Positions 16,029 through 47,907 are shown, counted from the first letter of the stretch. The stretch: 64,000 nt of DNA from Candidatus Micrarchaeota archaeon (GCA_964643685.1 CAZXTN010000001.1:34967-98966), one strand, 5' to 3'. A program made the numbers and translations. The notes: generated by a model not told the origin, from the letters alone.

Positions 16029-16048
16029 ATTATATATCTTTTATATAT
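16029..16048 (+). promoter_or_regulatory. Tandem TATA-box-like elements (attatatat / tttatatat) 22-41 nt upstream of the pilin ATG
   Basis: Two AT-rich TATA-like octamers in the 48-nt intergenic spacer, positioned as expected for an archaeal BRE/TATA promoter with a short or leaderless transcript. Confidence 0.4.
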
Positions 16049-16069
16049 CCAGAGTTCTTTTTAAACGAT

Positions 16070-16657
16070 ATGGAAAAAGGCATATCCCCCATAGTTTCAT
16101 ACGTAATGGTAATAGCAATAGTGCTTACAACAACAATGGCAGCTTACATGTGGGCCCTGCCATTATCAAAAGAAATGGGAGAAAAAGGGAGAGTAACAAA
16201 CCTACAGAGCCAAATGATAGGACTTGATTACATAATAAGAACAACAGCACACGGAGACATCAACTTCCAGAACAAATACGAAATGTACCTACCTGACTGC
16301 TTCCTTCTGCTTGATGAAGGCAACAACTCAATAAAACTAAGGCTAAGTCAAAAAACAGGAGTAATTGGGACAAACACCACAGAAGTTGAAATAAGAACAG
16401 ACTGCAACGAAACAAGCCAATGGCTCATAGACAATGAAACAGGAATCAAAATGTACAGGCTCGGGAACAACTCAAATATCTTCAGGGGAGCAGTAGGGCC
16501 AGCAGCAGGAGACGCTGAAATAGCAATATGCTACCATAACATAAACTTAAGATACAGCGGAGACTGCACCAAAGGAAAAGGAGGGCCATTTGCAACAATC
16601 ATAACAAAAAAAACAGGATACGACACAAAACCAATAGTAGAAGTATCAATATGCTAA
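16070..16657 (+). CDS. Archaeal type IV pilin with class III signal peptide (Pilin_N-type)
   Basis: N-terminus 'MEKG/ISPIVSYVMVIAIVLTTTMAAY' matches the archaeal pilin N-domain consensus (K/R-G, then xSPVI and a hydrophobic stretch). Start set at the internal Met of ORF 15998..16657. Confidence 0.65.
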   Translation: MEKGISPIVSYVMVIAIVLTTTMAAYMWALPLSKEMGEKGRVTNLQSQMIGLDYIIRTTAHGDINFQNKYEMYLPDCFLLLDEGNNSIKLRLSQKTGVIGTNTTEVEIRTDCNETSQWLIDNETGIKMYRLGNNSNIFRGAVGPAAGDAEIAICYHNINLRYSGDCTKGKGGPFATIITKKTGYDTKPIVEVSIC

Positions 16658-16670
16658 AAGTGATTAAAAA

Positions 16671-17120
16671 ATGGGAACAGTAACAATAAGCTTTGTAATA
16701 AAAATAACAATACTGCTAGTTGCATTCGTAACAATATACTACTCAATATACGGCTATGTGAACACTGCAAAACAAGAATCATACTACCTGCAAATGAAAC
16801 AAGTAGGAGAATATGTTCAAGCAAAAGCAGAATACGGCTTGGAGAACACAAAATCGTACGGCAAAAACATGACGCAGAAACTTGACTTGCCTCAACTTGA
16901 CTTCATATACACAGTGAAAATAAGCTGCGGAGATAAGCTGAAAATAAGAACAAGTGCAGAAACAGCAACAAGCAGGTATTATGAAACAAACGATTACTTC
17001 AACTGCAGCAACATAAATGCTTCAGGAGAGATATACTCAGGAAAAAAATGCATGATAACAGAAAAAGTAAACGAGACATACATGAACATAAAACTGGTGA
17101 ATGACTGTGGCTTGGAATAA
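16671..17120 (+). CDS. Small N-terminally membrane-anchored protein, possible minor pilin
   Basis: 'MGTVTISFVIKITILLVAFVTIYY' hydrophobic N-terminus. Sits between a pilin and a pilus ATPase. No sharp motif. Confidence 0.35.
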   Translation: MGTVTISFVIKITILLVAFVTIYYSIYGYVNTAKQESYYLQMKQVGEYVQAKAEYGLENTKSYGKNMTQKLDLPQLDFIYTVKISCGDKLKIRTSAETATSRYYETNDYFNCSNINASGEIYSGKKCMITEKVNETYMNIKLVNDCGLE

Positions 17121-19095
17121 AAAAATACTCAGAAAATTATTCAAAAACTCTGTGAAAAAAGTAAGAGAAAAAGGAGGAAAAACAGCTTTTGAGCAATGGA
17201 AAAAAGAAGAAGAGGAGATTGAAAAAGCAACACCAACATACAAAGTAAAAGAAGTAGTTCACGAAACACCAGTAATCACACCAGTTGTAAAAACAGAAGG
17301 AGAGATGCCAATAAAATTAATAACACAAGCCCCAAGCCAAACAACAGTAGTGGAAAAATCAGGCGTAAAAAGAGTCATACAAAAACAAGAAAGCCAAACA
17401 GAAGAAACAAGCAAAAGCACAACACAAGCACCAATAATCCTCAACTTTCCTGACATATCAGAAGCGCTAAGCAGAGAAAAGCAAGTCATTTCAATAAACG
17501 AAGCCAAATCAAAAGTAAGAGGAATCCCCCTCATAGCTCACAAAATGCCAAAAGAAGAAGTATCTAAAAAAATATCAAGCGACTGGGAACCACCTAACTT
17601 AAAAGAAATAGACGTAAGATACCCATTAATAGAACCATACGCCTACGCAGTAATCAAATGGAACAAAGAACTGCAAGCACTAAGCTACACAGTAATAGAA
17701 CCGCCTCTTACAAAAAAAGAAAAAGAAAAACTAGAAACATTAAAAGAACTCATAATAGACCTGCTTGACGTCAACTTAATGGACGTAAAAAATATAAGAG
17801 AAGTGCAAAAATACCTAAAAGAAAAACTAAACCAAATGATAGCAGACTACGAAATAAACTTAACAGAAACAGAATACAACAAAATACTCTACTACATCTA
17901 CAGAAACTTTCTAGGACTAGACAAAATAGAACCGTTAATGCAAGACCCAGGAATAGAAGACATTTCATGCGACGGAGAAAAAATACCAATATTCATATAC
18001 CACAGAAAATACGGTTCCTTGAAAACAAACATAGTTTTCGAAACACAAGAAGAACTAAACAAATTCATCTCAAAACTAGCGCAAAGAAGCGGAAAACACA
18101 TATCAGTAGCAGAACCACTACTAGACGGGGCTCTTCCAGACGGAAGCCGTCTTCAAGCAACATTCTCATCAGGAAAAGACATTGCAATGAGAGGCTCCAC
18201 CTTCACAATCAGAAAATTCACAAAAGACCCCCTCACAATAACAGACTTCATAAACTTCGGAACAATCCCTCCATTAATAGCAGCATACCTATGGCTCATA
18301 ATAGAATACCACAACTCAATACTAATAGCAGGAGGAACAGCAACAGGAAAAACAAGCACATTGAACGCATTAAGCTTATTCCTGCCACCTGAAGCAAAAA
18401 TAGTTTCAATAGAAGACACTCCTGAACTAAGACTACCTCACGAACACTGGATAGCAAAAGTATCAAGGATGGGATACGGCCCAGAAGGAGCAACAGGAAA
18501 AAGAAAAGGAGAAGTGTCAATGTTCGACTTGCTGAAAGCAGCTTTGAGGGAAAGACCAGATGAGATAATAGTCGGAGAAGTAAGGGGAGCAGAAGCATAC
18601 GTCTTGTTCCAAGGAATGGCAACAGGACACGCAGGACTCGCAACTATACACGCAGAATCAATAGAAGCAGTAATAAACCGTCTAACAACCCCTCCGATAA
18701 ATTTGTCAGCAGGACTACTTCAACACCTAGACGTAGTAATGATAATGGGATTCTCAAGAATAAAAGGAATAGACGTAAGAAGAGTAAAAGCAGTAGTGGA
18801 AGTAATAGGAGTAGATGAAAAAACAAACAAGCCAATAACAAACACCTTATTCAGATGGATACCAGCAGGGGACTACTTCGAATTCGCTTCAGACAGAAGC
18901 TACATACTAAACGAAATAATAGAAGAAAAAGGAATACCTGAAAAAAGCGTATGGGAAGAAATACAAAGAAGAGTAACAATCCTAGAATGGATGAAAAAAG
19001 AAAACATCAGGTACTACAAAGATGTTGGAAAAATAATAGCCCATTACTACAAAAACCCAGAAGAAGTAATCAAAAAAATAAACGAATCAAAATAA
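17101..19095 (+). CDS. Type IV pilus/archaellum-family secretion ATPase (FlaI/TadA/VirB11-like) with about 230-aa low-complexity N-terminal extension
   Basis: Walker A 'GGTATGKTSTLNAL', Walker B/Asp box 'IVSIEDTPEL', 'IIVGEVRGAEAYVLFQGMATGHAGLATIHA' (His box). Confidence 0.85.
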   Translation: MTVAWNKKILRKLFKNSVKKVREKGGKTAFEQWKKEEEEIEKATPTYKVKEVVHETPVITPVVKTEGEMPIKLITQAPSQTTVVEKSGVKRVIQKQESQTEETSKSTTQAPIILNFPDISEALSREKQVISINEAKSKVRGIPLIAHKMPKEEVSKKISSDWEPPNLKEIDVRYPLIEPYAYAVIKWNKELQALSYTVIEPPLTKKEKEKLETLKELIIDLLDVNLMDVKNIREVQKYLKEKLNQMIADYEINLTETEYNKILYYIYRNFLGLDKIEPLMQDPGIEDISCDGEKIPIFIYHRKYGSLKTNIVFETQEELNKFISKLAQRSGKHISVAEPLLDGALPDGSRLQATFSSGKDIAMRGSTFTIRKFTKDPLTITDFINFGTIPPLIAAYLWLIIEYHNSILIAGGTATGKTSTLNALSLFLPPEAKIVSIEDTPELRLPHEHWIAKVSRMGYGPEGATGKRKGEVSMFDLLKAALRERPDEIIVGEVRGAEAYVLFQGMATGHAGLATIHAESIEAVINRLTTPPINLSAGLLQHLDVVMIMGFSRIKGIDVRRVKAVVEVIGVDEKTNKPITNTLFRWIPAGDYFEFASDRSYILNEIIEEKGIPEKSVWEEIQRRVTILEWMKKENIRYYKDVGKIIAHYYKNPEEVIKKINESK

Positions 19096-19107
19096 AGGTA
19101 GGCAAAA

Positions 19108-20007
19108 ATGTTCGAATCAATAATATTTAAAAGAAGCTACAGGCTCCTAGCATACAAAATATTCCACAAGCTAGGAATAACAAAATACTTCAAGCCATTA
19201 TTCAAAGACACAAAACAAATGCTGCATAAAGCAGAACTATACATGCCAGTTGAAGAATACATAGCAACAGCCCTCCTCACAATAACCCTCTCCTTCCCAT
19301 TCATCTTCCTCATAAGCAGATTAATACTCATAAACATATACGAATTAATACCGCTGGCAGCAACAATAATCAGCTTTCTCATATCAACATTCACAGGCCT
19401 TGGAATCTTCCTCGCTTTCATGATCTACCCATCATACGAAGTAGACAACATAAAAAGAAACATAGAACTGAACATCCCATACGCAGCAACACACATGGCA
19501 ACAGTATCAGGAACAGGAGTGCCAATATACCTCGTATTCAAAATAATAGGAGACTTTCCAGAATACGGAGAACTTGCAAAACAATGCAGAAGAATAGCAA
19601 GAAACATAGAAGTATTCGGCTACGACACAGTAAGCGCCTTATCAGAAGTAGCAACAGAAACACCCTCTCCTTCATTCAAAGACTTACTATGGGGAATTGT
19701 TTCAATAACAAGAACAGGAGGAGACATGAGAGAATTTTTAATAGACAGGGCAAGAAAATACATGGACAACCAAAAAAACATGGAATCAGAATACCTCGAC
19801 TCACTTGAACTAATGGCAGAATTATACACAACACTATTCGTAGCAGGACCAGTGCTAGTAGTAATCATGGCAACAATAATGGGATCCATAGGCTCACTGC
19901 CAATAGGACTTGAAATCATCTTCCCATTATTCATTTACATAATGATGCCCCTCATGGCAATAGGATTCATGATACTAATAGAAAGCTCAAAACCAGTAGG
20001 AGCATGA
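19108..20007 (+). CDS. Pilus platform protein, single T2SSF domain (TadB-like / FlaJ N-half)
   Basis: TM helices flanking the cytoplasmic T2SSF-like segment 'MATVSGTGVPIYLVFKIIGDFPEYGELAKQCRRIARNIEVFGYDTVSALSEVA'. Confidence 0.65.
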   Translation: MFESIIFKRSYRLLAYKIFHKLGITKYFKPLFKDTKQMLHKAELYMPVEEYIATALLTITLSFPFIFLISRLILINIYELIPLAATIISFLISTFTGLGIFLAFMIYPSYEVDNIKRNIELNIPYAATHMATVSGTGVPIYLVFKIIGDFPEYGELAKQCRRIARNIEVFGYDTVSALSEVATETPSPSFKDLLWGIVSITRTGGDMREFLIDRARKYMDNQKNMESEYLDSLELMAELYTTLFVAGPVLVVIMATIMGSIGSLPIGLEIIFPLFIYIMMPLMAIGFMILIESSKPVGA

Positions 20008-20014: not shown

Positions 20015-21196
20015 ATGAAGAAAAAAATCAAACTCACTCAAAAAGACGAAGCATTAATAGCAATCTCATTAATAGGCTTCCTCTTGCTAGTTATAAGCAT
20101 ACTTTTCCTGCAAGAAACAACCTACTTCGAAACAACAGCAATAATTTCAATAATAATAATCGGACTACCTTTCCTAATAAACCAATACTTGATATTCAAA
20201 AAAGCAAAAGAAATAGAGGAATACCTCCCTGACTTCCTAAGAGACGTGGCAGAATCAATAAGAGCAGGCATGCCCTTGTCAAAAGCAATTGAAAACGCTT
20301 CACACGGAACCTATGGAGCGCTTACAGATGAAATGAAAATAACCTCAGCTCAAATATCCTGGGGAGTAGACTTCGAAGAAGCCCTGCGAAAATTTGCAGA
20401 AAGAGTAAAAAGCAAACTAGTAAGACAAGCCATCTTAATAATCATCGAATCACATAAATCAGGAGGAGAAGTAGCAGACATACTTGAAACAGTATCCACT
20501 GACATCAAAACACTTAAAAGTATAGAACAAGAGAGAAAATCAAAACTAAAAGTATACCTCGTTTCAATGTACTTCATTTTCCTCCTATTCCTCGGAATAA
20601 TAGTAGCCTTGACACAAGCATTCATACCAGCAACCCCTCAATTAAACCAAGCAGCAGGACTACTAGGAGGACACCCTTCAAAACTAAGCGAAGAAGACTT
20701 CAAAACATACTTCTTCCACTTGACACTAATACAAGCATTCTTTGCAGGATTAATCGCAGGACAAATGGGAGAAGGAAGCGTAATTTCAGGGATAAAACAC
20801 TCAATAACACTCGTAGTAGTAACCCTTGTAGTCTTCCAAATTTTCCTCCCTCCAATAACACTCGAACAAAAAATAGCTGACTTAATAACCAGGACACCTC
20901 CAACAGCAACAAAAATAGAATCAGCAGCAAACGCCTTCACAATATACAAGACAACAACCACAAACGACGTCATAAGAGAAGTTAAGAAAAAAGCATCTTC
21001 ATCAGAAAGGCTTAAAATGTACGAGAACATGACAGCAAGCCAAATAAGCTTTGATAAAATGCCAGACTGCAAGCCATGCGAAAGGGGAGATATAGTCGTT
21101 TCAAACAATTCAGTAGTAGTAAACAACCCAGTGAAAATAACTTACTCAGTATTCATCTCAAACAAAAGATACTTAGTGAAAATAGGAGGGGACTGA
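20015..21196 (+). CDS. Pilus platform protein, single T2SSF domain (TadC-like / FlaJ C-half)
   Basis: 'PDFLRDVAESIRAGMPLSKAIENASHGTYGALTDEM...LVRQAILIIIESHKSGGEVADILETVSTDI' is a typical T2SSF domain, followed by TM helices. Lies 8 nt after the preceding platform gene in a different frame. Confidence 0.65.
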   Translation: MKKKIKLTQKDEALIAISLIGFLLLVISILFLQETTYFETTAIISIIIIGLPFLINQYLIFKKAKEIEEYLPDFLRDVAESIRAGMPLSKAIENASHGTYGALTDEMKITSAQISWGVDFEEALRKFAERVKSKLVRQAILIIIESHKSGGEVADILETVSTDIKTLKSIEQERKSKLKVYLVSMYFIFLLFLGIIVALTQAFIPATPQLNQAAGLLGGHPSKLSEEDFKTYFFHLTLIQAFFAGLIAGQMGEGSVISGIKHSITLVVVTLVVFQIFLPPITLEQKIADLITRTPPTATKIESAANAFTIYKTTTTNDVIREVKKKASSSERLKMYENMTASQISFDKMPDCKPCERGDIVVSNNSVVVNNPVKITYSVFISNKRYLVKIGGD

Positions 21197-21202: not shown

Positions 21203-21685
21203 ATGAAAGGAACAGTTGACTACGACTTCATACTCTCAATAGGACTGTTTGCAGTAGCCTACATCAGCCTGTTCACACTCCTCCCTTACATAAACATAAG
21301 TTCAACAGACACGCAAGACACTTTCCTGCAAGAAACAGATTACCTATCAACAGTGCTTGTAAAATACCCAGGATACCCAAAAAACTGGACAGCAACAGTA
21401 GACATGAAATCAATAGGACTCGCTTACTACGACAACACAACAACTTACCCAAACGTACTTGAACTGACAAAAATAAAAGCAATAACAAGCACTTCCTGCG
21501 AATCACTCAAACCAAAAACAGGAACCACGATGAACTTCATAATAAACATAAAACTAAACAATGGCAGCAATTACAACTGCACAGGAACAAAACCAAACTA
21601 CTCACGTGAAATACAAAGACCAATAACAGCATATGACGGAAACGGAAACTACTACCCAGGCACACTTCAGCTATACTGCTGGTAA
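21203..21685 (+). CDS. Small secreted/pilin-like protein
   Basis: 'MKG/TVDYDFILSIGLFAVAYISLF' is a KG-plus-hydrophobic N-terminus. N-x-S/T-rich. Confidence 0.35.
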   Translation: MKGTVDYDFILSIGLFAVAYISLFTLLPYINISSTDTQDTFLQETDYLSTVLVKYPGYPKNWTATVDMKSIGLAYYDNTTTYPNVLELTKIKAITSTSCESLKPKTGTTMNFIINIKLNNGSNYNCTGTKPNYSREIQRPITAYDGNGNYYPGTLQLYCW

Positions 21686-21708: not shown

Positions 21709-22620
21709 ATGAATAAAGGATTTGTAAAAATATTCGAAGTGATACTTGCAATAAGCATAATATTCATAGTAATAAACAACATCTACTCCGCACTGCCACC
21801 AGCATACCAAGACGCACAGGGAATAAACCGCCTGCAAAGATACGCAGGAGACATAGCATCCTCAATATGCTACAGCCAAACATTCAGAGAAAATACAATC
21901 AAAGGATACATACCAATAAACCTTACATTATACGCTGACGCCTGGAACAAAAGCAATTCAAGCAGATACTATGATACTTCAGCTGATTTAGAAGGAACAG
22001 CAAGGCAGACAACCTACTTCAACAGAAGCGCAAGCAAAATAAAAATATGCATTGAAACAGACGGAGCCATGAATTCAGACATTGAATTCTCAATATGCGA
22101 AAAAGACACTTCAAGCAACTACTACTGCAAAATAAACACACTATCAGAAGACCATGTAATAAGCGCGCCCACCTCAGCTGGATTATGGTGCACTGAATGG
22201 TTCAACTACTCAGTAAACAAAAACAAAGTATACCTAGTTAATGACTACGTTACAGACGGCGATTACCTTGCTTATTACACTAATGGACAAAATGGCTTCT
22301 GGTGGTGCGACGGAGCAGACACCACGCAACAAAGAGCCCCTTTAACCACTTGCTACGATTACAGCACATACCCTGAAACAATACACGTATACGGCTACTA
22401 CGACTTAGGATTAAACCAAACACTCGCCAATGACCTAAACTACCACATCTGGCTTTACTCAAACAATTCAGCAGACGGAAAACTAGATGATTTAATAAAC
22501 GAAAGCGGAAAAGAAACAAGCTCTACACTGGCAACAGCATCCTGCTTGATAAGCAGCTATGAAAAAGAATACTCTCCTAAAAAAATAGTAGTGGGAATAT
22601 GGAACAGGAACGAAGAATAA
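21709..22620 (+). CDS. Pilin-like secreted protein
   Basis: 'MNKG/FVKIFEVILAISIIFIVINN' N-terminus. Cys- and sequon-rich body. Confidence 0.4.
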   Translation: MNKGFVKIFEVILAISIIFIVINNIYSALPPAYQDAQGINRLQRYAGDIASSICYSQTFRENTIKGYIPINLTLYADAWNKSNSSRYYDTSADLEGTARQTTYFNRSASKIKICIETDGAMNSDIEFSICEKDTSSNYYCKINTLSEDHVISAPTSAGLWCTEWFNYSVNKNKVYLVNDYVTDGDYLAYYTNGQNGFWWCDGADTTQQRAPLTTCYDYSTYPETIHVYGYYDLGLNQTLANDLNYHIWLYSNNSADGKLDDLINESGKETSSTLATASCLISSYEKEYSPKKIVVGIWNRNEE

Positions 22621-22916
22621 TGAAAAAAAACAAAACAAGCAAAAGAAAAGGACAAATTTACTTACTAATAGCAGGCATGATAATACTAGCAATAAGCACT
22701 CTCGCAAACATAGCAATACACACCTCAATGCCAGTCGAGCAGAAGCAGATAAAAACAACAAGCATAGGAGAAATGGCAATGAACTTGAAGATAGAAATGA
22801 GTATGATGAAAAGGAACAACATCAGCTCAAGCAACATAACAGACTTCCTGAACATTTTCAACAACTACTCAGCTGAAAAAAACTACGAATCACAAACAAG
22901 CGAAATAGATTCATGA
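22620..22916 (+). CDS. Small pilin-like protein (class III signal candidate)
   Basis: 'MKKNKTSKRKGQ/IYLLIAGMIILAISTLANIAI'. Start ATG overlaps the upstream stop (TAATG). Confidence 0.4.
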   Translation: MKKNKTSKRKGQIYLLIAGMIILAISTLANIAIHTSMPVEQKQIKTTSIGEMAMNLKIEMSMMKRNNISSSNITDFLNIFNNYSAEKNYESQTSEIDS

Positions 22917-31285: not shown

Positions 31286-31472
31286 AAAGCCAATCATAAC
31301 TCAACCTGTCTCAAACTACTTTTTTTCACTTCAACTCATGAAACAACCAATACTTATTTAATACCTAAAAGAGTTAATACTAAATGCGGAGGAAAAAAAG
31401 CATTCCAAAAAACACCAAACAAAACATTATTCAAACGCAATTAGCAAATTAATCTCAAAAAGGTTCTTAAAA

Positions 31473-32012: not shown

Positions 32013-32105
32013 AAAAAGCAGACAATAACTTTTTAATAAGCAAAACCCTCTTAACAACATAATAAACTAACTCAAAAAAAAATAAGAAGAGGGAAGAAAA
32101 ATAAA

Positions 32106-33278: not shown

Positions 33279-33304
33279 ACAAAAACTGATTTTAAAAAAA
33301 ACAT

Positions 33305-39380: not shown

Positions 39381-39387
39381 ATTTAAA

Positions 39388-39942
39388 ATGAACAAAGGAT
39401 TAAGCGCTTGGCTGTTCAGCAAAATGGTAATGCTTTCATTTCTGTTAATTGTATTCAGCATCATGGGAGGGTTTCTTACAATATTAAACGAAAGAGCATT
39501 CAATGATTCAGCTTCAATACTCTGCCTTCAAGCAAGAGAATACTTGTCAGGGGTAGTGAATTCAAACGTAATAAGCGTTGAAAAAATAATGCCAATTCCA
39601 AAAGTGCTGCCAAGCGAAACAAATCAAAAAAGAAGAATGTATTACTTAGTAATAAGTTATTCCAGTTCAGACAATTCAGTTTCATTTGCAGTCACGCATG
39701 ACTTGTATCATGACCAGACATATGTCTCCTCTTCCTTGCTTTACCTGCCAAGCAATTCAGGAATACAATGGGGAAGTGGAGACTTGAGAATAAGCTCAGA
39801 TAAATACAGGTACTTAGTTATTCAAAAAAAACAAGGAGAAACCACAATTTACGCTTGCAAAGGAATAAACCCAACTACATTAAAAAACTGCATTTCAAGC
39901 CAAAGCCCTTCAGCTGAAAGTGATTCAATTGAAAGAGTTTAA
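39388..39942 (+). CDS. Pilin-like protein
   Basis: 'MNKG/LSAWLFSKMVMLSFLLIVFSIMGGFL'. Confidence 0.4.
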   Translation: MNKGLSAWLFSKMVMLSFLLIVFSIMGGFLTILNERAFNDSASILCLQAREYLSGVVNSNVISVEKIMPIPKVLPSETNQKRRMYYLVISYSSSDNSVSFAVTHDLYHDQTYVSSSLLYLPSNSGIQWGSGDLRISSDKYRYLVIQKKQGETTIYACKGINPTTLKNCISSQSPSAESDSIERV

Positions 39943-40351
39943 AAGCAAATCAAGGGGGTTCATAGGCCCGATTGGCGACGACTTGCCAAGCATAATAGCA
40001 ATATTGCTAGGCTTGTCTTTATTTTTCAGCGCATTAAGCTTTACGTTAAATGTTTACAATAACAAACTGACAGCATACAACATACTAAAAGGCACAATGG
40101 AAATAGCACATAAAGTCAACGAAAAAGGAGTAATAACTGAAAGCGCAAGCGACTTAATGCATTCAGCTGAAAAAATAGCTGAGTCATATGGGCTTGACTT
40201 CTGCATAAAAACAAAAGTAGGAAACACTAATGGAAAATCATGCACTACAGGAAACGACTGTCAAACAAGCTGGCTTCATTTCAAATACTTCACGGCATTT
40301 GAAACAAGCAACGGCATAAAACCAGGCACTTTGGAGGTATGCGCAGGATGA
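39920..40351 (+). CDS. Pilin-like protein (GTG start)
   Basis: '...KSKSRG/FIGPIGDDLPSIIAILLGLSLFFSALSF'. GTG start overlapping the upstream gene end. Confidence 0.35.
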   Translation: MIQLKEFKSKSRGFIGPIGDDLPSIIAILLGLSLFFSALSFTLNVYNNKLTAYNILKGTMEIAHKVNEKGVITESASDLMHSAEKIAESYGLDFCIKTKVGNTNGKSCTTGNDCQTSWLHFKYFTAFETSNGIKPGTLEVCAG

Positions 40352-40890
40352 ACAAAAGCAAAAGAAGAAAAGGGCAGTCTTCAATAATAGACGCTTTCTT
40401 ATTTATAATGATCTGCTCAAGCGCGGCAGTGCTAATGATTTACACAGCAGGGTTATATGGATTGAATAATTCAAAACAAGTTAGCATGGCATACAATTTT
40501 GAATTCATTAACAATGCTTTGATTTCAATGCATTACATGCAAGACAACCAGGGTGATTTTTTCTGGAGCAAGTTAAGTGAAAAGTTAATATGCGATGGAA
40601 ACACACCATGTGATGAAAAAATAGATGTTCAATCTTATTTGAATGGAGATGCTAAAGCAATTTGGGGTAACTTAACAACAGCTTCTCCTTCTTCAAAAAT
40701 ATCACTGGAATTTAAGTCAGAGGAGGACAGCAGAGACTTTTACTGCCACCCCTCATCTTCAGCAACTTTAACAGTAGCATGCACTGACTCTGACAATTAT
40801 GCAGATTACACTACTATTTTTTCAAGCTCAAGCGGATTAAAAGACAAAAACGCAGACAGTTGGAAAATAACCTTAAGAATATACTACTAA
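40339..40890 (+). CDS. Pilin-like protein with class III (KGQ) signal peptide
   Basis: 'MRRMNKSKRRKGQ/SSIIDAFLFIMICSSAAVLMIYTAGLYGL'. Confidence 0.45.
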   Translation: MRRMNKSKRRKGQSSIIDAFLFIMICSSAAVLMIYTAGLYGLNNSKQVSMAYNFEFINNALISMHYMQDNQGDFFWSKLSEKLICDGNTPCDEKIDVQSYLNGDAKAIWGNLTTASPSSKISLEFKSEEDSRDFYCHPSSSATLTVACTDSDNYADYTTIFSSSSGLKDKNADSWKITLRIYY

Positions 40891-40962: not shown

Positions 40963-41106
40963 TCAGAGCAACAACATGCCTATTTGATTTACTGAGAATT
41001 CAGCTGCATTTTGAAACATCGGCTTAATAATAGCCAACAGCAAAATAGCTGCAATTGCTACAATCACAGCCAAGTAAATAGGCGTCCAATTCTGTCCCTT
41101 CATCAT
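40963..41106 (-). CDS. Miniature (47 aa) pilin-like protein with KGQ class III signal. Not in the supplied ORF track (<60 aa).
   Basis: Reverse strand translates to 'MMKGQ/NWTPIYLAVIVAIAAILLLAIIKPMFQNAAEFSVNQIGMLLL'. Same MM(K/R)GQ start as the adjacent 41188..41664 gene. Confidence 0.4.
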   Translation of the reverse strand: MMKGQNWTPIYLAVIVAIAAILLLAIIKPMFQNAAEFSVNQIGMLLL

Positions 41107-41187: not shown

Positions 41188-41664
41188 TTAACTCATAGAG
41201 GCATCAGGACCGATACCTACTATACAATCTTTATTTTCATCACATGTAGCTTTAATAACTGTTTTAAAAGTGCTTGAGATAGCAACAGTATCTCCAGAAG
41301 CTGAACATCCTCCAAGTGCTGCATCACAACTAAATTTAACACTTCCTGTTCCTCCTAAAATATCTTTAAAAGAATTGCTTGAATACACAACACCTGGCTT
41401 GAAGCTTGCTTCAGTTTGGCTTACAAAAGTAGAACCAGGGTACTGAACTGCCTGCTGCAATTGCCCTTTAATCATAGTAGCTGGGTCTTGTCCAGGCAAG
41501 CTGATTCCCCCGAGAATAGCTAATAAAATTCCAAGAATAGCAACTGCTACTACAGCTGCAATCATTAATTTAAAAGTATCAAATGCTTGTCCTCTCATCA
41601 TACAAAAAACCACCTCTTTAAGATTAATTAAAAAAAAGAAACAAAAGTATAAAAAGCTTTTCAC
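41188..41664 (-). CDS. Type IV pilin-like protein with class III (RGQ) signal peptide
   Basis: 'MMRGQ/AFDTFKLMIAAVVAVAILGILLAILGGISL'. Confidence 0.55.
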   Translation of the reverse strand: MKSFLYFCFFFLINLKEVVFCMMRGQAFDTFKLMIAAVVAVAILGILLAILGGISLPGQDPATMIKGQLQQAVQYPGSTFVSQTEASFKPGVVYSSNSFKDILGGTGSVKFSCDAALGGCSASGDTVAISSTFKTVIKATCDENKDCIVGIGPDASMS

Positions 41665-41686: not shown

Positions 41687-42097
41687 TTACGAAGAACAGG
41701 ATTCACCTAAGTAAACATTGCAAAGAGAATGAGAAGAACAAGTTACACTTACAGGAGTGCTTAATTTCCTAGGGAAACTGCAAGAACTACCACTGCAAAT
41801 ACGAGGATGAAAAGCATCATCATGAAAAGAAACACTTACTCCAATACTTGACTGGTAATAATTTTTTTCAATTAAAGCATGCTTGTCAAAGCAAATTGTT
41901 CTTTCAAAGCACTTGTCAGGGGCCCTTGACGCCTGCAGGACAAGAGTTTCAAGTTCTTTAAAACCAGGCGAAGGGCAGGTAATGTTAGAAGTTGCTTGGT
42001 AAATCAAGCCAAGCAAAGCCATTGCAAAAGCCAGGCCAATGAGCATTTTGAAGACAGTGAACGCTTGCCCCTTGTTATTAATTAATTTTAATTTCAT
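41687..42097 (-). CDS. Type IV pilin-like protein with class III (KGQ) signal peptide
   Basis: 'MKLKLINNKGQ/AFTVFKMLIGLAFAMALLGLIYQ'. Start overlaps the FlaJ stop (ATGA). Confidence 0.55.
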   Translation of the reverse strand: MKLKLINNKGQAFTVFKMLIGLAFAMALLGLIYQATSNITCPSPGFKELETLVLQASRAPDKCFERTICFDKHALIEKNYYQSSIGVSVSFHDDAFHPRICSGSSCSFPRKLSTPVSVTCSSHSLCNVYLGESCSS

Positions 42098-44175
42098 CCG
42101 AGAACACCTGACATTTTAGAAGCAAAGAAAGCTGAAATGAAAAAGAAAAGCAGGGCAATAGGCAGACTCTTGGCTATCACTGACTTCACTGTCAGGTCAT
42201 TGTCCCCTTCTTCTATTTTAGAAGTGAAGAATAAGAGAATTAAAGTCACTTGAATTACGTAAATTGCTATGATTATAAGGAAAGTCTGTGAAGAGGGGAT
42301 TTGTGCAAGGGCTTCTGGATTCGAGCATAAATTAACTGAACTCATGCCTCCTTCTGCCATTCCAGCACTTGAGCCAAGTTGTCCTGTTTTTCCACATGCT
42401 GATTTCATAGCGTCAATTATTATCTTCTGCAAGGCTGTTGTTATTCCAAGCACAAGAGGGCCTATGAAAAAAGCAATTGACTTCATCATTGAAGTGATTT
42501 CATCTAGTAATGACTTTATTTTTTCATTGATTTTCTGAGAATCTCTTAATTGCAGTGAAAGGGAAATAAGCGAACGCGCCGCGTGTTGAACTCCTAAGCT
42601 GATTGAATCCACTATTATTTTAAAACCTCCCCTGATAAGAGTCGAAGGCACATTTTTTAATGCGCCGTAAACAGGGTCAAACAAAGCTCCTTCTACAGTC
42701 ATTCCCATGTTGTTAATGTTTTCATCTGCCTTGTTGAAAACATCTGCTATTTCATTTCCTTTCATGAACTGGGCAGTGTAACCCATTGCTTCTTCCATTG
42801 GACGGTTTTCGCCTAAACGAGAAGCAAGGATGTAAATGGAATCCTGGAATCCTTTCTCCATTTTCATTATTTTCAATTGAATTTTTCTCTTAGCACTGAC
42901 TTGCCCAAGCAAGTAAATAGACAAGAAAGCGCTGAAGCCGAAGAAAACTCCAGCTATTCTGAAGAAATGAAAGTAAGCAGTGACAGCTTCCTTGTTCCAA
43001 GCTTCAGGAGGGGGGTTAAGCAAAGGATCTACTACAAAAGCAGACAAGGCGAAGACAATCAAGCCAACTGCAAGCGCAACTGCTATTGTAGGTACTGAAA
43101 TTTTGCCTATTTTCATAAATCCTTTTTTAGGAAGACCAGGATAATTATCTGGAATTTTAGGAGGGGTGTAGACAGGAGGGCGTTTTGCAAGGATGGTGCG
43201 AGCGAACATTACAGTCATTAAGGGAATTGCAATGTTGTACATGAGAATCAAATAAATTGTTTTTCCAAGAGGAAGGCCAGCCATGGCAGAGCCGATTGGA
43301 AGCATTATGATGAGAAGAAGAGGAAGGAGAACTCCTACATAGTAAAGGTAGACACTTGGTTGCCTCATTTCAGCAGCGTATTTTCCCATGTTTTCTTTCA
43401 AGCTTTCAAGAGTGTCGCTTACTGCTTTTTCTAATAAAATTTCTCTTTTTGCTTCGTCGACTTCAATAACTGAAGAGCGAATAACCATTAACGCGTGCTT
43501 GAATTCATCAGAGTACTTTCCCCACTTGTAAGCAAGTTCATCAAGCCCTTCTTCAATTGTGTTGAATTCCCCTACTTTTGTCTTCCATGATATTTTTTTC
43601 AAGTCATCTGCTATTTTTCCCTTACCGTGTTCAGCTGCGAAGTCAACTGCTTTCTCCAAGTTCGGCGAAAGTTTCATTGACATAACCATGTAATTGATTA
43701 TTTCAGGAATGTATGTGACTGACTTCATTTTCAAGTCCTTGGCAGCTGAAACAGGGTAGTTCTGCAAGTAAAAGGAAATGAAAAAAGGAAGAAGCAAAGC
43801 AGGCATGCCCACATACACTAAGTAAATGGTTGCGCCTGGAGGAATTACTCCGAAAACTTGGAAGAAAAGGTCAATTATTACAAATAAGAACAAGGGAATT
43901 GAAATCAAAGCACCTATGAACAAGCCAAGCATTGGAGCTGCATTAACTTCCCTTGGCTTTAAGTCCCAGCCGAGAAAATCAAGAGCAAGCTTGTAATCTT
44001 CCTTTTGAAACACGTTAGGTGCTTTGAACATTTTGCCTGCTTTTCGGCATAACTTGACATACCAGTTGCTGGATTTTCCCCTGCTTGGAGAATCTGCTCC
44101 GAAGTCGCTTTGTATTTTTTTAAGAAAATCATCTTCTTCTTGCTGCGGCGATTTTCTTTTGCTTGATTGCTTCAA
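42094..44175 (-). CDS. FlaJ/TadC-like polytopic pilus platform protein (fused two-domain form, 693 aa)
   Basis: T2SSF-like cytoplasmic domain 'MKSVTYIPEIINYMVMSMKLSPNLEKAVDFAAEHGKGKIADDLKK...LESLKENMGKYAAEM', flanked by multiple TM helices. Adjacent to an ATPase. Confidence 0.75.
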   Translation of the reverse strand: MKQSSKRKSPQQEEDDFLKKIQSDFGADSPSRGKSSNWYVKLCRKAGKMFKAPNVFQKEDYKLALDFLGWDLKPREVNAAPMLGLFIGALISIPLFLFVIIDLFFQVFGVIPPGATIYLVYVGMPALLLPFFISFYLQNYPVSAAKDLKMKSVTYIPEIINYMVMSMKLSPNLEKAVDFAAEHGKGKIADDLKKISWKTKVGEFNTIEEGLDELAYKWGKYSDEFKHALMVIRSSVIEVDEAKREILLEKAVSDTLESLKENMGKYAAEMRQPSVYLYYVGVLLPLLLIIMLPIGSAMAGLPLGKTIYLILMYNIAIPLMTVMFARTILAKRPPVYTPPKIPDNYPGLPKKGFMKIGKISVPTIAVALAVGLIVFALSAFVVDPLLNPPPEAWNKEAVTAYFHFFRIAGVFFGFSAFLSIYLLGQVSAKRKIQLKIMKMEKGFQDSIYILASRLGENRPMEEAMGYTAQFMKGNEIADVFNKADENINNMGMTVEGALFDPVYGALKNVPSTLIRGGFKIIVDSISLGVQHAARSLISLSLQLRDSQKINEKIKSLLDEITSMMKSIAFFIGPLVLGITTALQKIIIDAMKSACGKTGQLGSSAGMAEGGMSSVNLCSNPEALAQIPSSQTFLIIIAIYVIQVTLILLFFTSKIEEGDNDLTVKSVIAKSLPIALLFFFISAFFASKMSGVLG

Positions 44176-46417
44176 TTTGCCTCCTCCTCTGCACTAGTCT
44201 TTCAACCTGCTCTTTTAAAACCCATTCTTTCCAGTCTTTTTTCGCCTGCTCCCAGTCAACAAAACCCTGCGCTTGCCTCTGGTCTTCTAAAATAAGCAGC
44301 CACTTGTCATTAGCAGGCACTGTGAATTCAGCTTCAAGCAGCTGCGGAATGTTGTATTTTCTTTTCATTTCAACTAAGAAGTTCTTGGTTTCAGCGCGTG
44401 CATGAATGTCATCCCATAAGTCACTGACTTTCAAACCACGTTTTTTTGCTATGCGTGGGAACAATTCAGAACGCTTCAACTCCTCTTGGTTTATGTAATG
44501 AGTGTCTTTTTCAGCGTCAAATTGAAGAATGTTAATAAGCCCTCCTTCTTTTTCAGGGTCCTCGTACCAGTGTTTTCCAATTTCAGTTATTTCAACTAGC
44601 CTCCTGTTTCTTTTAAGAGAACCTTTGAATCTCACTGGAGCTGAAGTGACTACTACGTCAGTTGCTTTGAATGAGGTGTTAGGCACTCCCAAGTCATTTA
44701 CTATCCTGTCCCATACTGAGTAAGCGTTTTCACCGTGAATTGTTCCCATTACAACGTTTCCAACAGCACCTACTCTCATTGCTTCATACAAAACTTGGGC
44801 TTCTTTTGAACGCACTTCTCCTACTATCAATACAGAGTCACCGAGACGCAAAGCAGTTCTTAATGCTTCTTCAGGTGGCACTTCTGCGCTTGTTCTTGAA
44901 ACACTTATTGCTGACTGCGTTTTCAGCCTTTGAATGTTGTAACCTAGTTTTTTCATGTAAGGCACTGGAATTTCAAGAGTGTCTTCTTGTACAATTATTC
45001 TCGCTGATGGCAGTATTTCCAGCATTAAAGCCATGAGCATTGAAGTCTTACCAGCTCCCCTAGAGCCGTTGACTAGAGTTGATGCCTGCGCGTCTATTAG
45101 GAAAGACAGCAAGCCAGCTGCAAGTGGATTAACCATTTTAACGTCAATGAATTGAGGCAGAGTCCAAGGCGTCTGCTTGTGTAATCTTAAAGCAAGTGCT
45201 ATGCCGTCAGGGGATAAAGGAGGACCTATTACAGCTACTCTTGTTTGAAGAGCGTTTAAGTCCAAGTCCATTACTGGATGCGCTTCGTCAAAAGGCCTTC
45301 CTGAAAGCGAACGGAATCTTGAGATTATTCCCTTTGCTTCTTGTTCAGTGAAAAGCACGTTTGTCTGGCAGCTGCCATATTCTCCATGCACGACGTAAAC
45401 TGGTTTTGTGCCGAGAGGAGCGTCCATGTAAACGTCTGTGAGCTTCCTGTCTCTTAAAAGCAGTTCCATCATGCCGTAGCCGACAGTGTAACGGGTTACT
45501 ATTTTAGCTAATTGCTGTGTTTCTTTTCCTGTTATTATTATTTTGTTTTTCTGAGCTAAGTCAGAGATTGTTCTTTCGTAAATTTTAGCAAAGTAGTTTC
45601 TGATGTCTTCTGGTGTCATGAACCTGATTCCTTTCGGGCGGTAGGATGAAACAAGTTCTCTTGTCTTGGTTAGCAGGAAGTATTTTTCAGGGGACAAGTT
45701 GAATTCAGGTGGGTTGATGTAGTAGAGGAATTGTATTTTTTCAGGGTGCTTGTAAATGTTGACAGTCGCGTCTTCAACTATGTATTGGTCAACTAGTTCC
45801 ACGTTTGCAGGAGTGTGGAAAAAGACATTTGAAGATACAAACGCCGGTTTTATTTGAACTTGAAACAAGGAGTGGTAAATTGCTCTTCCTTTCGGCACTT
45901 TTCCAAGTTTTTTAAGAATAAGCTTTACTTTTTTAATCAAGGTTGTTCTTTCAAAAGCGTTGTACATGAAAGCAAGGGTTCTTAAGAAGCCGTCGTCTCC
46001 TCCTGAAGCTATTCTCTGCTTTTCTTTCTTGATTAATTCAACTAACTGCAAGTAAGCTTGAATAGGGTCTGTTCTAAGAAGCTCCTGTGCTATCATTAAA
46101 ACTTGCTGATTTCTTTCTTTAAGCACTTCTTCGCTCGCTTTTCCAAGACGGGATGGAGTCCACACTCCTTCTCTTAAGAACAAGTCATATAATTCAGCTA
46201 TTTCTTTAATCATTTTTGTCTGTTTTTCATCGTAAATGTTTTCATAAACATCTGACAAGACAATTATGTCAGGATCAGTTTTGCCTGCTTTTTCAATGAC
46301 TTCGCTCATCACTGAAGGAAAATCAGCTATGCTTGCAGAAGCTCCTTCGCCTCTGTAATCTATTATTAAATACCTCTTTCCCCCTTCTACTTTTATGGTG
46401 TAATCATGCCCAGACAT
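44129..46417 (-). CDS. FlaI/TadA/VirB11-like pilus secretion ATPase with Arg/Lys/Glu-rich C-terminal extension (762 aa)
   Basis: Walker A 'LVNGSRGAGKTSMLMAL', Asp box 'RIIVQEDTLEIP', 'VLIVGEVRSKEAQVLYEAMRVGAVGNVVMGTIHG'. Confidence 0.8.
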   Translation of the reverse strand: MSGHDYTIKVEGGKRYLIIDYRGEGASASIADFPSVMSEVIEKAGKTDPDIIVLSDVYENIYDEKQTKMIKEIAELYDLFLREGVWTPSRLGKASEEVLKERNQQVLMIAQELLRTDPIQAYLQLVELIKKEKQRIASGGDDGFLRTLAFMYNAFERTTLIKKVKLILKKLGKVPKGRAIYHSLFQVQIKPAFVSSNVFFHTPANVELVDQYIVEDATVNIYKHPEKIQFLYYINPPEFNLSPEKYFLLTKTRELVSSYRPKGIRFMTPEDIRNYFAKIYERTISDLAQKNKIIITGKETQQLAKIVTRYTVGYGMMELLLRDRKLTDVYMDAPLGTKPVYVVHGEYGSCQTNVLFTEQEAKGIISRFRSLSGRPFDEAHPVMDLDLNALQTRVAVIGPPLSPDGIALALRLHKQTPWTLPQFIDVKMVNPLAAGLLSFLIDAQASTLVNGSRGAGKTSMLMALMLEILPSARIIVQEDTLEIPVPYMKKLGYNIQRLKTQSAISVSRTSAEVPPEEALRTALRLGDSVLIVGEVRSKEAQVLYEAMRVGAVGNVVMGTIHGENAYSVWDRIVNDLGVPNTSFKATDVVVTSAPVRFKGSLKRNRRLVEITEIGKHWYEDPEKEGGLINILQFDAEKDTHYINQEELKRSELFPRIAKKRGLKVSDLWDDIHARAETKNFLVEMKRKYNIPQLLEAEFTVPANDKWLLILEDQRQAQGFVDWEQAKKDWKEWVLKEQVERLVQRRRQIEAIKQKKIAAARRR

Positions 46418-46978
46418 AAAACCACTGCATTCAAAAAACAGTTGAAAACTGCCTTGATATTCATACTAAGCATAAGTGCTTTTTATACCTTATTCTGGTT
46501 AATTTTAAAAAATTTGAATCTGTACCCATTGAAAAAAGCGACTGCAATAGCAGCTTATAAAATGCTTGAATTAATTGGAGTTAAAGCAGGTTTGGTTTTA
46601 ACAGCAGAGCCTTCAATAACAGTTGGGAAAGTGACTGCGCAGATAACTAACTTATGCGCAGGAGACTTAGAAATAGCTTTGATTACAGCTATTATTTTGT
46701 CAACTTTTGACAGGACATGGAAAAACAGGGCTTGGGGAGTCTTGTTTGCATGGCTTTTAATTTTAATTATCAACCCATTGAGGATATTTGCTGTGCTTGC
46801 TGTCGGTTACTATACTTCCTGGCAGTGGGCTGACTTCACTCATGACGTGCTGTTCAGGCTGACTTTGCTTGTCGTGATAGTTTTTTATTACTTCATTTGG
46901 TATGTAAAAAATGAAAAAATAAAGAAAAAGGTATTGAAATGGGCAGAGAAAAAGGGTTTTCATTATTCACTCCATTAA
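46406..46978 (+). CDS. Small polytopic membrane protein, possible exosortase/archaeosortase-family core
   Basis: 'NLCAGDLEIALITAIIL' resembles the exosortase 'CSG' region. 'NPLRIFAVLA' resembles the conserved N..R motif. Lacks the two-Asp pattern of prepilin peptidases. Confidence 0.35.
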   Translation: MPRHKTTAFKKQLKTALIFILSISAFYTLFWLILKNLNLYPLKKATAIAAYKMLELIGVKAGLVLTAEPSITVGKVTAQITNLCAGDLEIALITAIILSTFDRTWKNRAWGVLFAWLLILIINPLRIFAVLAVGYYTSWQWADFTHDVLFRLTLLVVIVFYYFIWYVKNEKIKKKVLKWAEKKGFHYSLH

Positions 46979-47907
46979 TCGGAACTACAATAATAGTAAT
47001 AGCAGCTGTAGTAAGCGCCATGATGCTTCAAAATGACGTGAGGATAAGCAGGGCTTTGTCAGATAGCTTCGAGCAAGCAAACCAGCAGAATGCAGCCAAG
47101 CTAGTTAAAGCAACTGCTGAAGTGACAATAAGAAAAGGAGTTGAACAGGGATTCAAAAAAACACTGGAAAAAGGCATAACAATTAATTATGAAAGTAGCA
47201 GCATTGAAGATTCTTTCAAGCAAGCAATTGAAAAAGGGATAAAGGATTACTTATCAACTGACTTATACAGCAATATGCTTGATGAAATTTCAACAAGCAC
47301 TGGATACGACGCTCAACACATTGATTGCACTGATTACGGCGGAGAAGCTGACAGCACGCCTGAAAATTGCCTTGCAAAAGGAATAAGCCACACTTCAATC
47401 ACTCTTGTAGACGACTCCTCTAATGGAAACAGGTACATGGCAGAGTTTGACATAGACAGGGACTATGAAGGAGCTTATGCTGTCCGTTTCAAAAACTCTG
47501 AAAACCAGTTTGTTATTCTTTCTTTAGAGCCTGATACAAGCGAAAGCTACCCAATTGCAATTGACGCTAAAACAATGATAGGAAACGTCAAGCAAATCAA
47601 GCAAAAGCTCGCTGTGAAAGGAGATGAAAGTTATAGGAATTTGCTTACAGGATTAAGGGACGGCGGTTTTTTCAGTGGAGTAAAGGAAGTTGACATTTAC
47701 AAAAAAGAAGGCTCAGATAAGAGGTTAATACAAATTATTTTCAAAGGAACAGAATGGGGGTTAGAGAAGGACTTTGTAATTAACTTAAAACCAAATGGAG
47801 ACAGAACTGATTACCATGTTCCTGAATGCAAATGGGATGAATCAAATGGAGTGCCAAGCTTATCAAGCTTAGATCCAAATGCTATTTTATGGAATGAATG
47901 TGATTAG
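46939..47907 (+). CDS. Pilin-like/secreted protein (322 aa)
   Basis: 'MGREKG/FSLFTPLIGTTIIVIAAVVSAMMLQ' is a class III-like N-terminus. Confidence 0.4.
   Translation: MGREKGFSLFTPLIGTTIIVIAAVVSAMMLQNDVRISRALSDSFEQANQQNAAKLVKATAEVTIRKGVEQGFKKTLEKGITINYESSSIEDSFKQAIEKGIKDYLSTDLYSNMLDEISTSTGYDAQHIDCTDYGGEADSTPENCLAKGISHTSITLVDDSSNGNRYMAEFDIDRDYEGAYAVRFKNSENQFVILSLEPDTSESYPIAIDAKTMIGNVKQIKQKLAVKGDESYRNLLTGLRDGGFFSGVKEVDIYKKEGSDKRLIQIIFKGTEWGLEKDFVINLKPNGDRTDYHVPECKWDESNGVPSLSSLDPNAILWNECD

Follow-up and report, generated by a model that had tools for sequence, protein, structure and literature searches.

The stretch of DNA analysed here, henceforth called the window, comprises 64,000 nucleotides of Candidatus Micrarchaeota archaeon (GCA_964643685.1, CAZXTN010000001.1:34967-98966), with all positions counted from its first letter. 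Three type IV pilus-like motors and 13 pilin-like proteins encoded in it were identified by profile scans and an N-terminal motif. They are probably part of a cell-surface supercluster of about 40 kb that is vertically inherited in DPANN archaea of the Micrarchaeota/Diapherotrites kind and encodes type IV filament (TFF) machinery for filaments unrelated to motility; the gene content, the domain identities, the conserved signal-like N-termini, the conserved synteny and the absence of archaellum genes were observed directly. In brief, open reading frames (ORFs) were mapped greedily with an initial filter of 60 amino acids, likely starts were refined (16070, 22620, 25407, 33742, and 41601 on the minus strand), and the window ORFs, except for a few short doubtful ones, were scanned against Pfam and NCBIfam. 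These scans bore out the three assembly modules at the positions given in an earlier note made from the sequence. The motors, pilin candidates and directly associated genes are listed below; in the N-terminal sequences, a hyphen separates the leader from the residues that follow it.

16070..16657, plus strand: p195, first gene of module 1; class III-type pilin candidate, MEKG-ISPIVSYVMVIAIVL
16671..17120, plus strand: p149, pilin-like, with the degenerate leader MG-TVTISFVIKITILLVAF
17101..19095, plus strand: ATPase 1, secretion ATPase of 664 amino acids with a disordered N-terminal extension
19108..20007, plus strand: platform 1a, first T2SSF half (E-value 4.3e-17), with partial ArlJ/UpsF matches below the cut-offs
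20015..21196, plus strand: platform 1b, second T2SSF half (E-value 3.1e-19), with an extra C-terminal domain
21203..21685, plus strand: p160, class III-type minor pilin candidate, MKG-TVDYDFILSIGLF
21709..22620, plus strand: p303, class III-type pilin-like protein, MNKG-FVKIFEVILAISIIF, with many N-glycosylation sequons and cysteines
22620..22916, plus strand: p98, small class III-type pilin-like protein, KRKG-QIYLLIAGMIIL
22972..25395, plus strand: p807, large secreted protein with a Sec-type signal and without Pfam match
25407..25991, plus strand: p194, secreted protein
25995..26360, plus strand: DUF192 protein (PF02643, E-value 2e-17)
26396..27211, plus strand: p271, highly charged cytoplasmic protein without family match, inserted between the DUF192 gene and ATPase 2
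27302..29014, plus strand: ATPase 2, 570 amino acids; N-terminal polyferredoxin domain (residues 10-104) fused to a secretion ATPase
28980..29567, plus strand: platform 2a, first T2SSF half (E-value 3.6e-12), overlapping the end of ATPase 2
29540..30241, plus strand: platform 2b, second T2SSF half (E-value 4.6e-13)
38823..40890, plus strand: four minor-pilin candidates, p185 (38823-39380), p184 (39388-39942), p143 (39920-40351) and p183 (40339-40890)
40963..41106, minus strand: mini-pilin of 47 amino acids without globular head, MMKG-QNWTPIYLAVIVAIAAILLLAIIKPMFQNAAEF (also given as MMKG-QNWTPIYLAVIVAIAAILLL)
41188..41601, minus strand: p137, pilin candidate with a very highly conserved N-terminus, MMRG-QAFDTFKLMIAAVVAVAILG
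41687..42097, minus strand: p136, paralogue of p137 (26% identity, E-value 1e-8), NKG-QAFTVFKMLIGLAF
42094..44175, minus strand: platform 3, 693 amino acids, fused, T2SSF-like with two repeats
44129..46417, minus strand: ATPase 3, 762 amino acids, with an N-terminal extension of about 280 residues and a helical C-terminal extension
46406..46978, plus strand: membrane protein of the exosortase/archaeosortase family, 190 amino acids, divergent from ATPase 3 (PF09721, E-value 8e-10)
46939..47907, plus strand: p322, class III-type, EKG-FSLFTPLIGTTIIV, in the operon of the exosortase-like and giant proteins

As judged from their sequences, the three putative motor ATPases belong to the FlaI/TadA/VirB11-type family of secretion ATPases. 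Scores against the Pfam T2SSE model (cut-off 24.9 bits) were 124.7 bits for ATPase 1 (E-value 4.6e-36), 128.5 bits for ATPase 2 (3.2e-37) and 68.3 bits for ATPase 3 (6.3e-19), and an alignment located the Walker A GKT, the acidic ED/EE-T-x-E box, the IVGEVR segment of Walker B and the His box in all three. The top NCBIfam model was ArlI/FlaI in each case, with 431, 184 and 147 bits compared to a cut-off of 550 bits, followed by the models for TadA, the bindosome ATPase BasE, VirB11 and TrbB (BasE ranked second and TadA third for ATPase 1). The best solved relative of each ATPase was the Archaeoglobus secretion ATPase 2OAP (426, 155 and 109 bits); the FlaI structure ranked below it (294, 119 and 86 bits), with CpaF between them for modules 2 and 3. 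This profile search had been set beforehand as a refutation test for the placement of the ATPases in the FlaI/TadA group, and the placement was not refuted. Homologues of archaellins, ArlF/G (FlaF/G), ArlH (FlaH), ArlCDE (FlaC/D/E) or ArlX (FlaX) were not found among the window ORFs scanned. Since no archaellum-specific gene occurs among these ORFs, the modules are read as pili rather than archaella, which agrees with the earlier note, where FlaF/G/H and FlaC/D/E homologues had been reported as missing.

The four platform genes of modules 1 and 2 encode split T2SSF halves. Platform 3 scored 23.0 bits against Pfam T2SSF, just under the cut-off of 25.2 bits, and was without NCBIfam match. Its orthologues are 43-50% identical. 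A profile built from the window protein and two orthologues was compared with the split-platform halves using hhalign, and the N-terminal half matched the first halves (97%, E-value 9e-11) and the C-terminal half the second halves (91%, E-value 1e-6). Because both halves found their counterparts in this profile-profile comparison, platform 3 is regarded as a fused two-repeat platform, as had been proposed in the earlier note for 42094-44175.

Pilin candidates were sought with a class III-like test that required [KR]G within the first 30 residues, followed at most 9 residues on by a 15-residue stretch with a mean hydropathy of at least 2.0. The motif was present in 11 of the 31 genes within 16.0-47.9 kb compared to 1 of the 32 genes outside (Fisher p = 0.001), and in 3 of 107 out-of-frame ORFs; the positive genes start at 16070, 21203, 21709, 22620, 38823, 39388, 39920, 40339, 41601 (minus), 42097 (minus) and 46939. 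Conservation weighs more than the motif as evidence for putative class III N-termini. In orthologues of three other genomes, [KR][G/A] at positions -2/-1 was kept and the next residues were nearly unchanged, e.g., in RG-QAFDTFKLMIAAVVAVAILG, G-QEEAPIELL, [GA]-FIGPIGxDLP, [GA]-Q[SA]xxxDA, KG-FSLFTPL and [KR]G-[IV]SP. The 11 firm candidates together with p149 and the mini-pilin bring the count to 13, so that the earlier note's "at least 12" class III-signal pilin candidates holds. As to glycosylation, the pilin candidates of module 1 carry 4-8 N-x-S/T sequons per protein and those of module 3 carry 0-3; sequon density is 14.7 per 1000 amino acids in pilin candidates vs 5.3 in other proteins.

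Between 16070 and 30241 all genes point the same way, several overlap, and no gap between neighbours exceeds 90 bp; modules 1 and 2 look like one long operon. Its first gene encodes p195, the probable major pilin of module 1, whose orthologues begin with MERG-ISPTV and MMKG-VSPVV; p195 is without Pfam match and scored 13.8 bits against TIGR02537 (archaellin/pilin N-terminus, cut-off 20). The p149 gene keeps its position in the loci of relatives L086 and L090, and its L090 orthologue begins with the canonical motif MRKG-AIFSVSLV. Platform 1b is 54% identical to its L086 orthologue. Both loci also hold orthologues of p160 and positional counterparts of p98 (MNRG-QFFIL in L086, MRG-QLFIL in L090), and an orthologue of p194 occurs in L084. 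The C-terminal 97 residues of p807 align with the middle of p194 (49% identity, E-value 2e-28), i.e., the two secreted proteins have in common a domain of unknown function.

Gene order was then compared with related genomes, as the earlier note had asked, and the three-module order recurs in relatives. In QMVG01000001.1, a Micrarchaeota metagenome-assembled genome (MAG) that contains loci L086 and L088, nearly every window gene between 15321 and 55617 has an orthologue in the same order, with identities of 65%, 44% and 69% for ATPases 1, 2 and 3, respectively. The shared order runs from a prenyltransferase, a pilin, p149, ATPase 1, two platform genes, pilin-like genes and a secreted protein to DUF192, the Fe-S ATPase, two platform genes, PAC2, flavin reductase and a zinc-ribbon membrane protein, and continues with a giant protein of about 1,600 amino acids, minor pilins, pilins, platform 3 and ATPase 3, and finally with the exosortase-like gene, a class III protein, a giant CarboxypepD_reg protein and small membrane proteins. 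The same three-module order is present at 229.9-270.8 kb of Ga0373629_0000001 (1,076,730 bp). Thus the full layout occurs in at least two other genomes (the two just named, ATPase identity 44-71%), and partial layouts occur in L084, L085, L089 and L092. The match lists of ATPase 2 and ATPase 3 share 16 contigs by coincident size, two of them confirmed by record name. Among the matches listed, homologues of these two ATPases are labelled Micrarchaeota, Diapherotrites, "DPANN group" or "archaeon", which, together with a syntenic relative on a 1.08-Mb contig, fits the earlier note's guess of a small-genome archaeon. GC (guanine-cytosine) content is even over the whole window, and scans of the window detected no transfer RNA (tRNA) and no Rfam element. 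With the order kept in distant relatives, housekeeping genes interleaved and GC content even, the region is interpreted as an old chromosomal neighbourhood rather than an acquired island. Of the earlier note's "island of unusual density", the density stands and the unusual or acquired insertion does not: the machinery is of a known kind, its density is real, and the order from 15.3 to 55 kb is a conserved lineage trait. Several TFF loci per archaeon are common, with up to eight per genome (preprint 10.64898/2026.04.22.720090).

ATPase 2 differs from the other two by its predicted Fe-S domain. Four CxxCx(2-8)CxxxC motifs begin at residues 10, 34, 63 and 89, several Fer4 models exceeded their cut-offs (e.g., PF00037 with 70.8 bits vs 21.1), and an alignment of 41 homologues (35-73% identity) shows each of the domain's 16 cysteines to be either invariant or conserved to at least 90%. 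In comparisons with the PDB, the core matched 2OAP, CpaF and FlaI, and the N-terminus matched the polyferredoxins MvhB, RnfB and FwdF. Most full-length homologues among the best 120 listed for ATPase 2 carry precomputed Fer4 and T2SSE annotations; in an exhaustive search of representative sequences with the Fe-S domain, the best 150 matches were mostly ordinary polyferredoxins, and only about ten matches were of ATPase size. A profile search of genome contigs with the ATPase 2 alignment was dominated by generic Walker motifs; the loci it gave were mostly those of bacterial CpaF, and a close relative was not among them. The gene calls of relatives place the start of platform 2a at the equivalent of 28989. 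L001, L084, L085, L086, L090 and L092 all have a DUF192 gene upstream of ATPase 2, and the two genes are immediate neighbours in L084, L085, L086 and L092; in L090, a gene for 199 amino acids on the opposite strand stands between them. The p271 gene is found in the near-identical contigs L001 and L002 and is absent from L084, L085, L086, L090 and L092; it is a lineage-specific insertion.

None of the seven loci examined contains a pilin gene of module 2's own. The earlier note's three separate assembly modules thus stand as three ATPase/platform sets and fall as three pilin-bearing systems, of which there are probably two, with module 2 being pilin-less. The simplest view is that two ATPase/platform pairs, those of modules 1 and 2, draw on one pilin set; in a 2016 census, duplicated ATPase/tadC pairs without pilins were likewise thought to share pilins (PMC4858521). 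A ferredoxin-fused TFF ATPase is not mentioned in that census, in a 2026 preprint (10.64898/2026.04.22.720090) or in the results of full-text literature searches, and literature searches on a link between DUF192 and pili and on pili of cultured Micrarchaeota returned nothing specific.

Module 3 owns seven class III genes, namely those of the two paralogous pilins, the mini-pilin and the four minor-pilin candidates at 38823-40890. The latter have the conserved N-termini GQEEAPIELL, KG[LM]..W, [GA]FIGPIGxDLP and [GA]Q[SA]xxxDA. Their block is inverted in the window, where it trails the gene for the 1451-amino-acid protein p1451; in L088, L089 and L091, it follows the module 3 pilins and platform 3 on the strand of ATPase 3, and because it is located in the ATPase 3 operon there, the four minor pilins were assigned to module 3. 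The mini-pilin fell under the 60-amino-acid ORF filter, was therefore missed in the first map, and is without Pfam match. No further small class III ORF turned up in the window. L088, L089 and L091 have a conserved counterpart of the mini-pilin in the corresponding place, which in one of them is not called as a gene, and the mini-pilin is a candidate for a Flp/Epd-like major subunit of module 3. For p137, 75 homologues were retrieved, none of them annotated, in which Q4, F6, T8, F9 and other residues are invariant. Its AlphaFold2 model (predicted local distance difference test, pLDDT, 89) consists of a 27-residue helix (residues 5-31) and a compact beta-rich head, and no fold match to this model was found in the PDB. 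ATPase 3 (AlphaFold2 pLDDT 82) is 54-94% identical to its best 120 listed homologues, ATPase 2 being far less conserved (35-73%). The ATPase 3 orthologues P0187, P0192 and P0234 of Diapherotrites are extended to about 1,260-1,300 amino acids and carry the intein/homing-endonuclease domains PF14528 and PF14890.

The gene for the exosortase-like protein is divergent beside ATPase 3 in all four genomes examined (window, L088, L089 and L091). The protein scored 45.8 bits against TIGR04178 (cut-off 23) and 38.9 bits against PF09721 (cut-off 25.7), and every named subfamily model scored below its cut-off. The motifs LCAGD, NPxRI and ADFTHD with the Cys, Arg and His residues are kept in the protein and its three orthologues. 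The predicted starts of ATPase 3 and the exosortase-like gene overlap by 12 bp (46406-46417) in the window and by 9 bp in L088. As the exact 190-amino-acid sequence does not occur in the public protein collection, the start codon of the exosortase-like gene is uncertain. C-terminal sorting tails are lacking on p322 and on the giant protein p2050; the only candidates with such a tail, p1451 and p223, are located 8-13 kb from the exosortase-like gene and have a membrane helix and a basic tail, and no defined motif. Neither the 2016 census (PMC4858521) nor the 2026 preprint (10.64898/2026.04.22.720090) mentions a sortase link to TFF systems. The giant surface proteins and the genes interleaved between modules 2 and 3 are the following:

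30268-31011, plus strand: PAC2 protein, not a pilus part by homology
31473-32012, plus strand: flavin reductase, not a pilus part by homology
32106-33278, plus strand: membrane protein with double zinc ribbon, not a pilus part by homology
33305-33745, plus strand: membrane protein p146, not a pilus part by homology
33742-34413, plus strand: p223, with C-terminal anchor, not a pilus part by homology
34417..38772, plus strand: p1451, giant surface protein with an N-terminal signal; its C-terminus comprises LPGLPENP, a membrane helix and a basic tail
47984..54136, plus strand: p2050, giant surface protein with CarboxypepD_reg/immunoglobulin (Ig)-like repeats

Orthologues of p1451 have 1404-1653 amino acids in five loci, and those of p2050 have 2257-2765 amino acids in L088, L089 and L091. 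We regard p2050 as a plausible adhesin. In the window and these three loci it shares a conserved and unusually long leader of about 40 residues (EDKW[FY]D.LD...KG[IV]PVY..VDP[LI]E) in front of a membrane helix, and this helix is preceded in three of the four genomes by G-IP, which looks like a site of class III cleavage. As a class III substrate p2050 was rejected, with its [KR]G-like site 40 residues in and not kept in L089. The interleaved genes at 30268-34413 occupy the same place in L084, L085, L086, L090 and L092. In the protein at 32106-33278, a long linker rich in Lys and Glu is combined with a double CxxC zinc ribbon at the C-terminus; its gene is conserved in the clusters of five relatives, on the opposite strand in all five; zinc-ribbon membrane proteins have been noted near other archaeal type IV pilus loci (PMC4858521). 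The gap between PAC2 and flavin reductase (31012-31472, 461 bp) is the longest non-coding stretch of the cluster and is without tRNA or Rfam match; a DUF473 gene is located there in two relatives. Immediately upstream of the pilus cluster lies a glycosylation block of about 13 kb (754-13695) with GT4, GT2 and GT1 transferases, a Polysacc_synt flippase-like protein, a UDP-GlcNAc 2-epimerase, a methyltransferase, a deacetylase and a HAD-phosphoglucomutase fusion. Downstream, eight successive genes on the plus strand (54217-57272) encode small membrane proteins of 74-170 amino acids without family match, and the first four have orthologues in L088, likewise behind the giant protein.

The architecture was compared with known systems. 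With their two platform genes, modules 1 and 2 resemble, by architecture alone, System 1 (Makarova clade 1, with the Epd pilus of Methanococcus maripaludis) or the related bacterial Tad/Flp pilus (with TadB/TadC); the long operon with many minor pilin-like genes and the presence of CpaF among the best solved relatives are further likenesses, and System 1 has been reported for some DPANN (preprint 10.64898/2026.04.22.720090). The tiny head-less pilin of module 3 resembles Flp/EpdE. In contrast to System 1, this mini-pilin accompanies the fused-platform module 3 and not the split-platform modules, module 3 lacks two platform genes, no EppA-type peptidase is found in the locus, and the mini-pilin has no Flp or class III signal Pfam match. 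Weak PF27713 matches occur among the precomputed annotations of ATPase 2 homologues. By architecture only, module 3 shares with System 2 as described in the preprint (10.64898/2026.04.22.720090; Makarova clade 2, euryarchaeal adhesion pili such as the Haloferax volcanii PilB3-PilC3 system with PilA) the single-gene platform, the N- and C-terminal extensions of the ATPase, the adhesin-like giants and several class III pilins with minor pilins; in addition, ATPase 1 gave a weak PilB3_C match (20.3 bits, cut-off 27) and its orthologue a weak PilB3_N match. Unlike System 2, the pilins here have no PilA/Pilin_N match, PilB3 domains remain below their cut-offs and are lacking on ATPase 3, no MinD/FleN partner was seen, and the exosortase-like neighbour and the head-less mini-pilin of module 3 are outside the description of that system. 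The Aap pilus of Sulfolobales offers an analogy only: there, a TFF ATPase/platform pair has a genetic link to a Fe-S protein, and without AapX, a Fe-S oxidoreductase encoded next to the pilus ATPase, no pili are formed (PMC11178785). AapX is a separate protein, whereas in module 2 the polyferredoxin domain and the ATPase form one polypeptide; moreover, the platform is split here and no Aap-type pilins were identified. Like subsystem 4D of Thermoproteales, module 2 has an ATPase and a platform without pilin genes of its own (10.64898/2026.04.22.720090), but it lies directly downstream of a pilin-bearing module and is without 4D's transcription-factor neighbours. The 190-amino-acid protein resembles ArtA-E, pacearchaeosortase and XrtX in scoring above the cut-off of the family signature model and in its Cys/Arg/His motifs; unlike these, it reaches no named subfamily cut-off, and the adjacent proteins are without C-terminal sorting signal.

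Taken as machinery, the genes would form two systems. System A (16.0-30.2 kb) would comprise p195, four more pilin-like proteins, secreted proteins and two pairs of ATPase and split platform, with the second pair most likely acting on the pilin pool of the first and the Fe-S domain coupling, as we infer, the activity of ATPase 2 to the redox state of the cell. System B (38.8-47.9 kb) would consist of ATPase 3, the fused platform, the two paralogous pilins, the mini-pilin and the four minor-pilin candidates, and would be coupled divergently to the exosortase-like protein, p322 and the giant Ig-repeat protein as plausible adhesin. In both, a prepilin peptidase encoded outside the window would cleave after [KR][G/A], and a hexameric ATPase would drive the platform so that the hydrophobic helices of the pilins are lifted from the membrane into the filament. 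The filaments may thereby serve adhesion or attachment to a host.

Several points weigh against this interpretation. Scans against the pilin and archaellin models of Pfam and NCBIfam, even at permissive E-values, gave only sub-threshold noise for all 13 pilin candidates, whose class III signals are predictions from motif and conservation. A prepilin peptidase (Peptidase_A24; PibD, FlaK or EppA) was found neither among the window ORFs scanned nor within 10 kb of the modules in relatives; the gene for the class III signal peptidase is often located elsewhere in the genome. Some same-position orthologues of ATPase 2 are without the Fe-S domain and start at the conserved LGWKK linker, and because it is missing from these syntenic orthologues, the domain would be an accessory module on a complete motor and not essential to it.

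Four other explanations were considered in the light of these points. That module 2, with its DUF192 gene, Fe-S ATPase and split platform, is a TFF core repurposed for protein or DNA translocation or for regulation, similar to subsystem 4D, appears rather unlikely, though we give this more weight than the remaining three. It would account for the lack of pilins in seven loci, the unique polyferredoxin domain and the DUF192 gene constantly upstream, and pilin-less ATPase/platform pairs with suspected repurposing have been described (10.64898/2026.04.22.720090); against it, module 2 stands with short gaps in the same gene row as module 1 with its five pilin-like genes, it has kept both T2SSF halves and all ATPase motifs, and pilin-sharing duplicates of ATPase/TadC pairs are common in Euryarchaeota (PMC4858521). 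Unlikely as well is the view that the class III-like proteins form no long adhesive pili but short pseudopilus- or bindosome-like structures or anchored surface proteins for secretion, surface-layer organisation or nutrient capture. The pilin candidates yielded no PDB sequence or fold match, p303 and p322 are large or unusual, p2050 has a conserved leader, and bindosomes are known to use archaeal TFF cores (10.64898/2026.04.22.720090), which speaks for such structures; none of the candidates is a substrate-binding protein, however, small pilins with an extremely conserved N-terminal helix (p137 and the mini-pilin) are typical of filament subunits, and giant Ig-repeat proteins beside the motors fit pilus loci that bear adhesins.

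That the region is a horizontally acquired or mobile island, as its dense packing of functionally related genes and the local inversion of the four-gene pilin block might suggest, is very improbable given the uniform GC content, the absence of a tRNA, integrase or repeat boundary in RNA and Pfam scans of the window, and the interleaved prenyltransferase, PAC2 and flavin reductase genes, whose order is kept in genomes with ATPases only 44-71% identical. Least probable of all, to the point of being negligible, is an archaellum (motility) operon in one or more of the modules. The archaellar ArlI/ArlJ core belongs to the same ATPase and platform superfamilies, ArlI/FlaI is the best NCBIfam match of all three ATPases (for ATPase 1 over 486 residues), and the platform halves match ArlJ partially; yet the ArlI scores and those for ArlJ (at most 90 bits vs 400-570) all remain under the curated equivalog cut-offs, the non-archaellar 2OAP outranks FlaI in the PDB comparison, and the defining accessory genes and the archaellins were not found among the window ORFs scanned, for which reasons the archaellum reading was rejected.

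Returning to TFF machinery for non-motility filaments, a more far-reaching version can be formulated, which we put forward as speculation and hold to be doubtful. ATPase 2 and its own split platform would constitute a second, redox-gated motor acting on the pilins of module 1, for conditional assembly or for disassembly/retraction, and would give these host-dependent anaerobes a redox-controlled switch between attachment and detachment; combined with the exosortase-linked module 3, the result would be a co-evolved, lineage-defining attachment apparatus with two filaments. If true, the redox-gated ATPase 2 would be the first case in which a type IV filament motor itself contains a Fe-S cluster.

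New at this locus are the fusion of a motor with a Fe-S domain, the constant tandem order of the modules, the link to a sortase, the pilin families without recognised relatives and the overlooked mini-pilin. DPANN archaea need contact with other cells, and how they attach is largely unknown. Papers on DPANN genomes usually state just "type IV pili present" (e.g., PMC8561730). For experiments, the locus provides a Fe-S-bearing pilus ATPase that can be purified and whose redox control is testable, a very conserved pilin pair (p137/p136) and a mini-pilin to be sought in filaments, and a synteny signature by which the system can be spotted in metagenomes. In one DPANN lineage, about 4% of a genome of roughly 1 Mb is given over to a fixed, inherited arrangement of surface apparatus.

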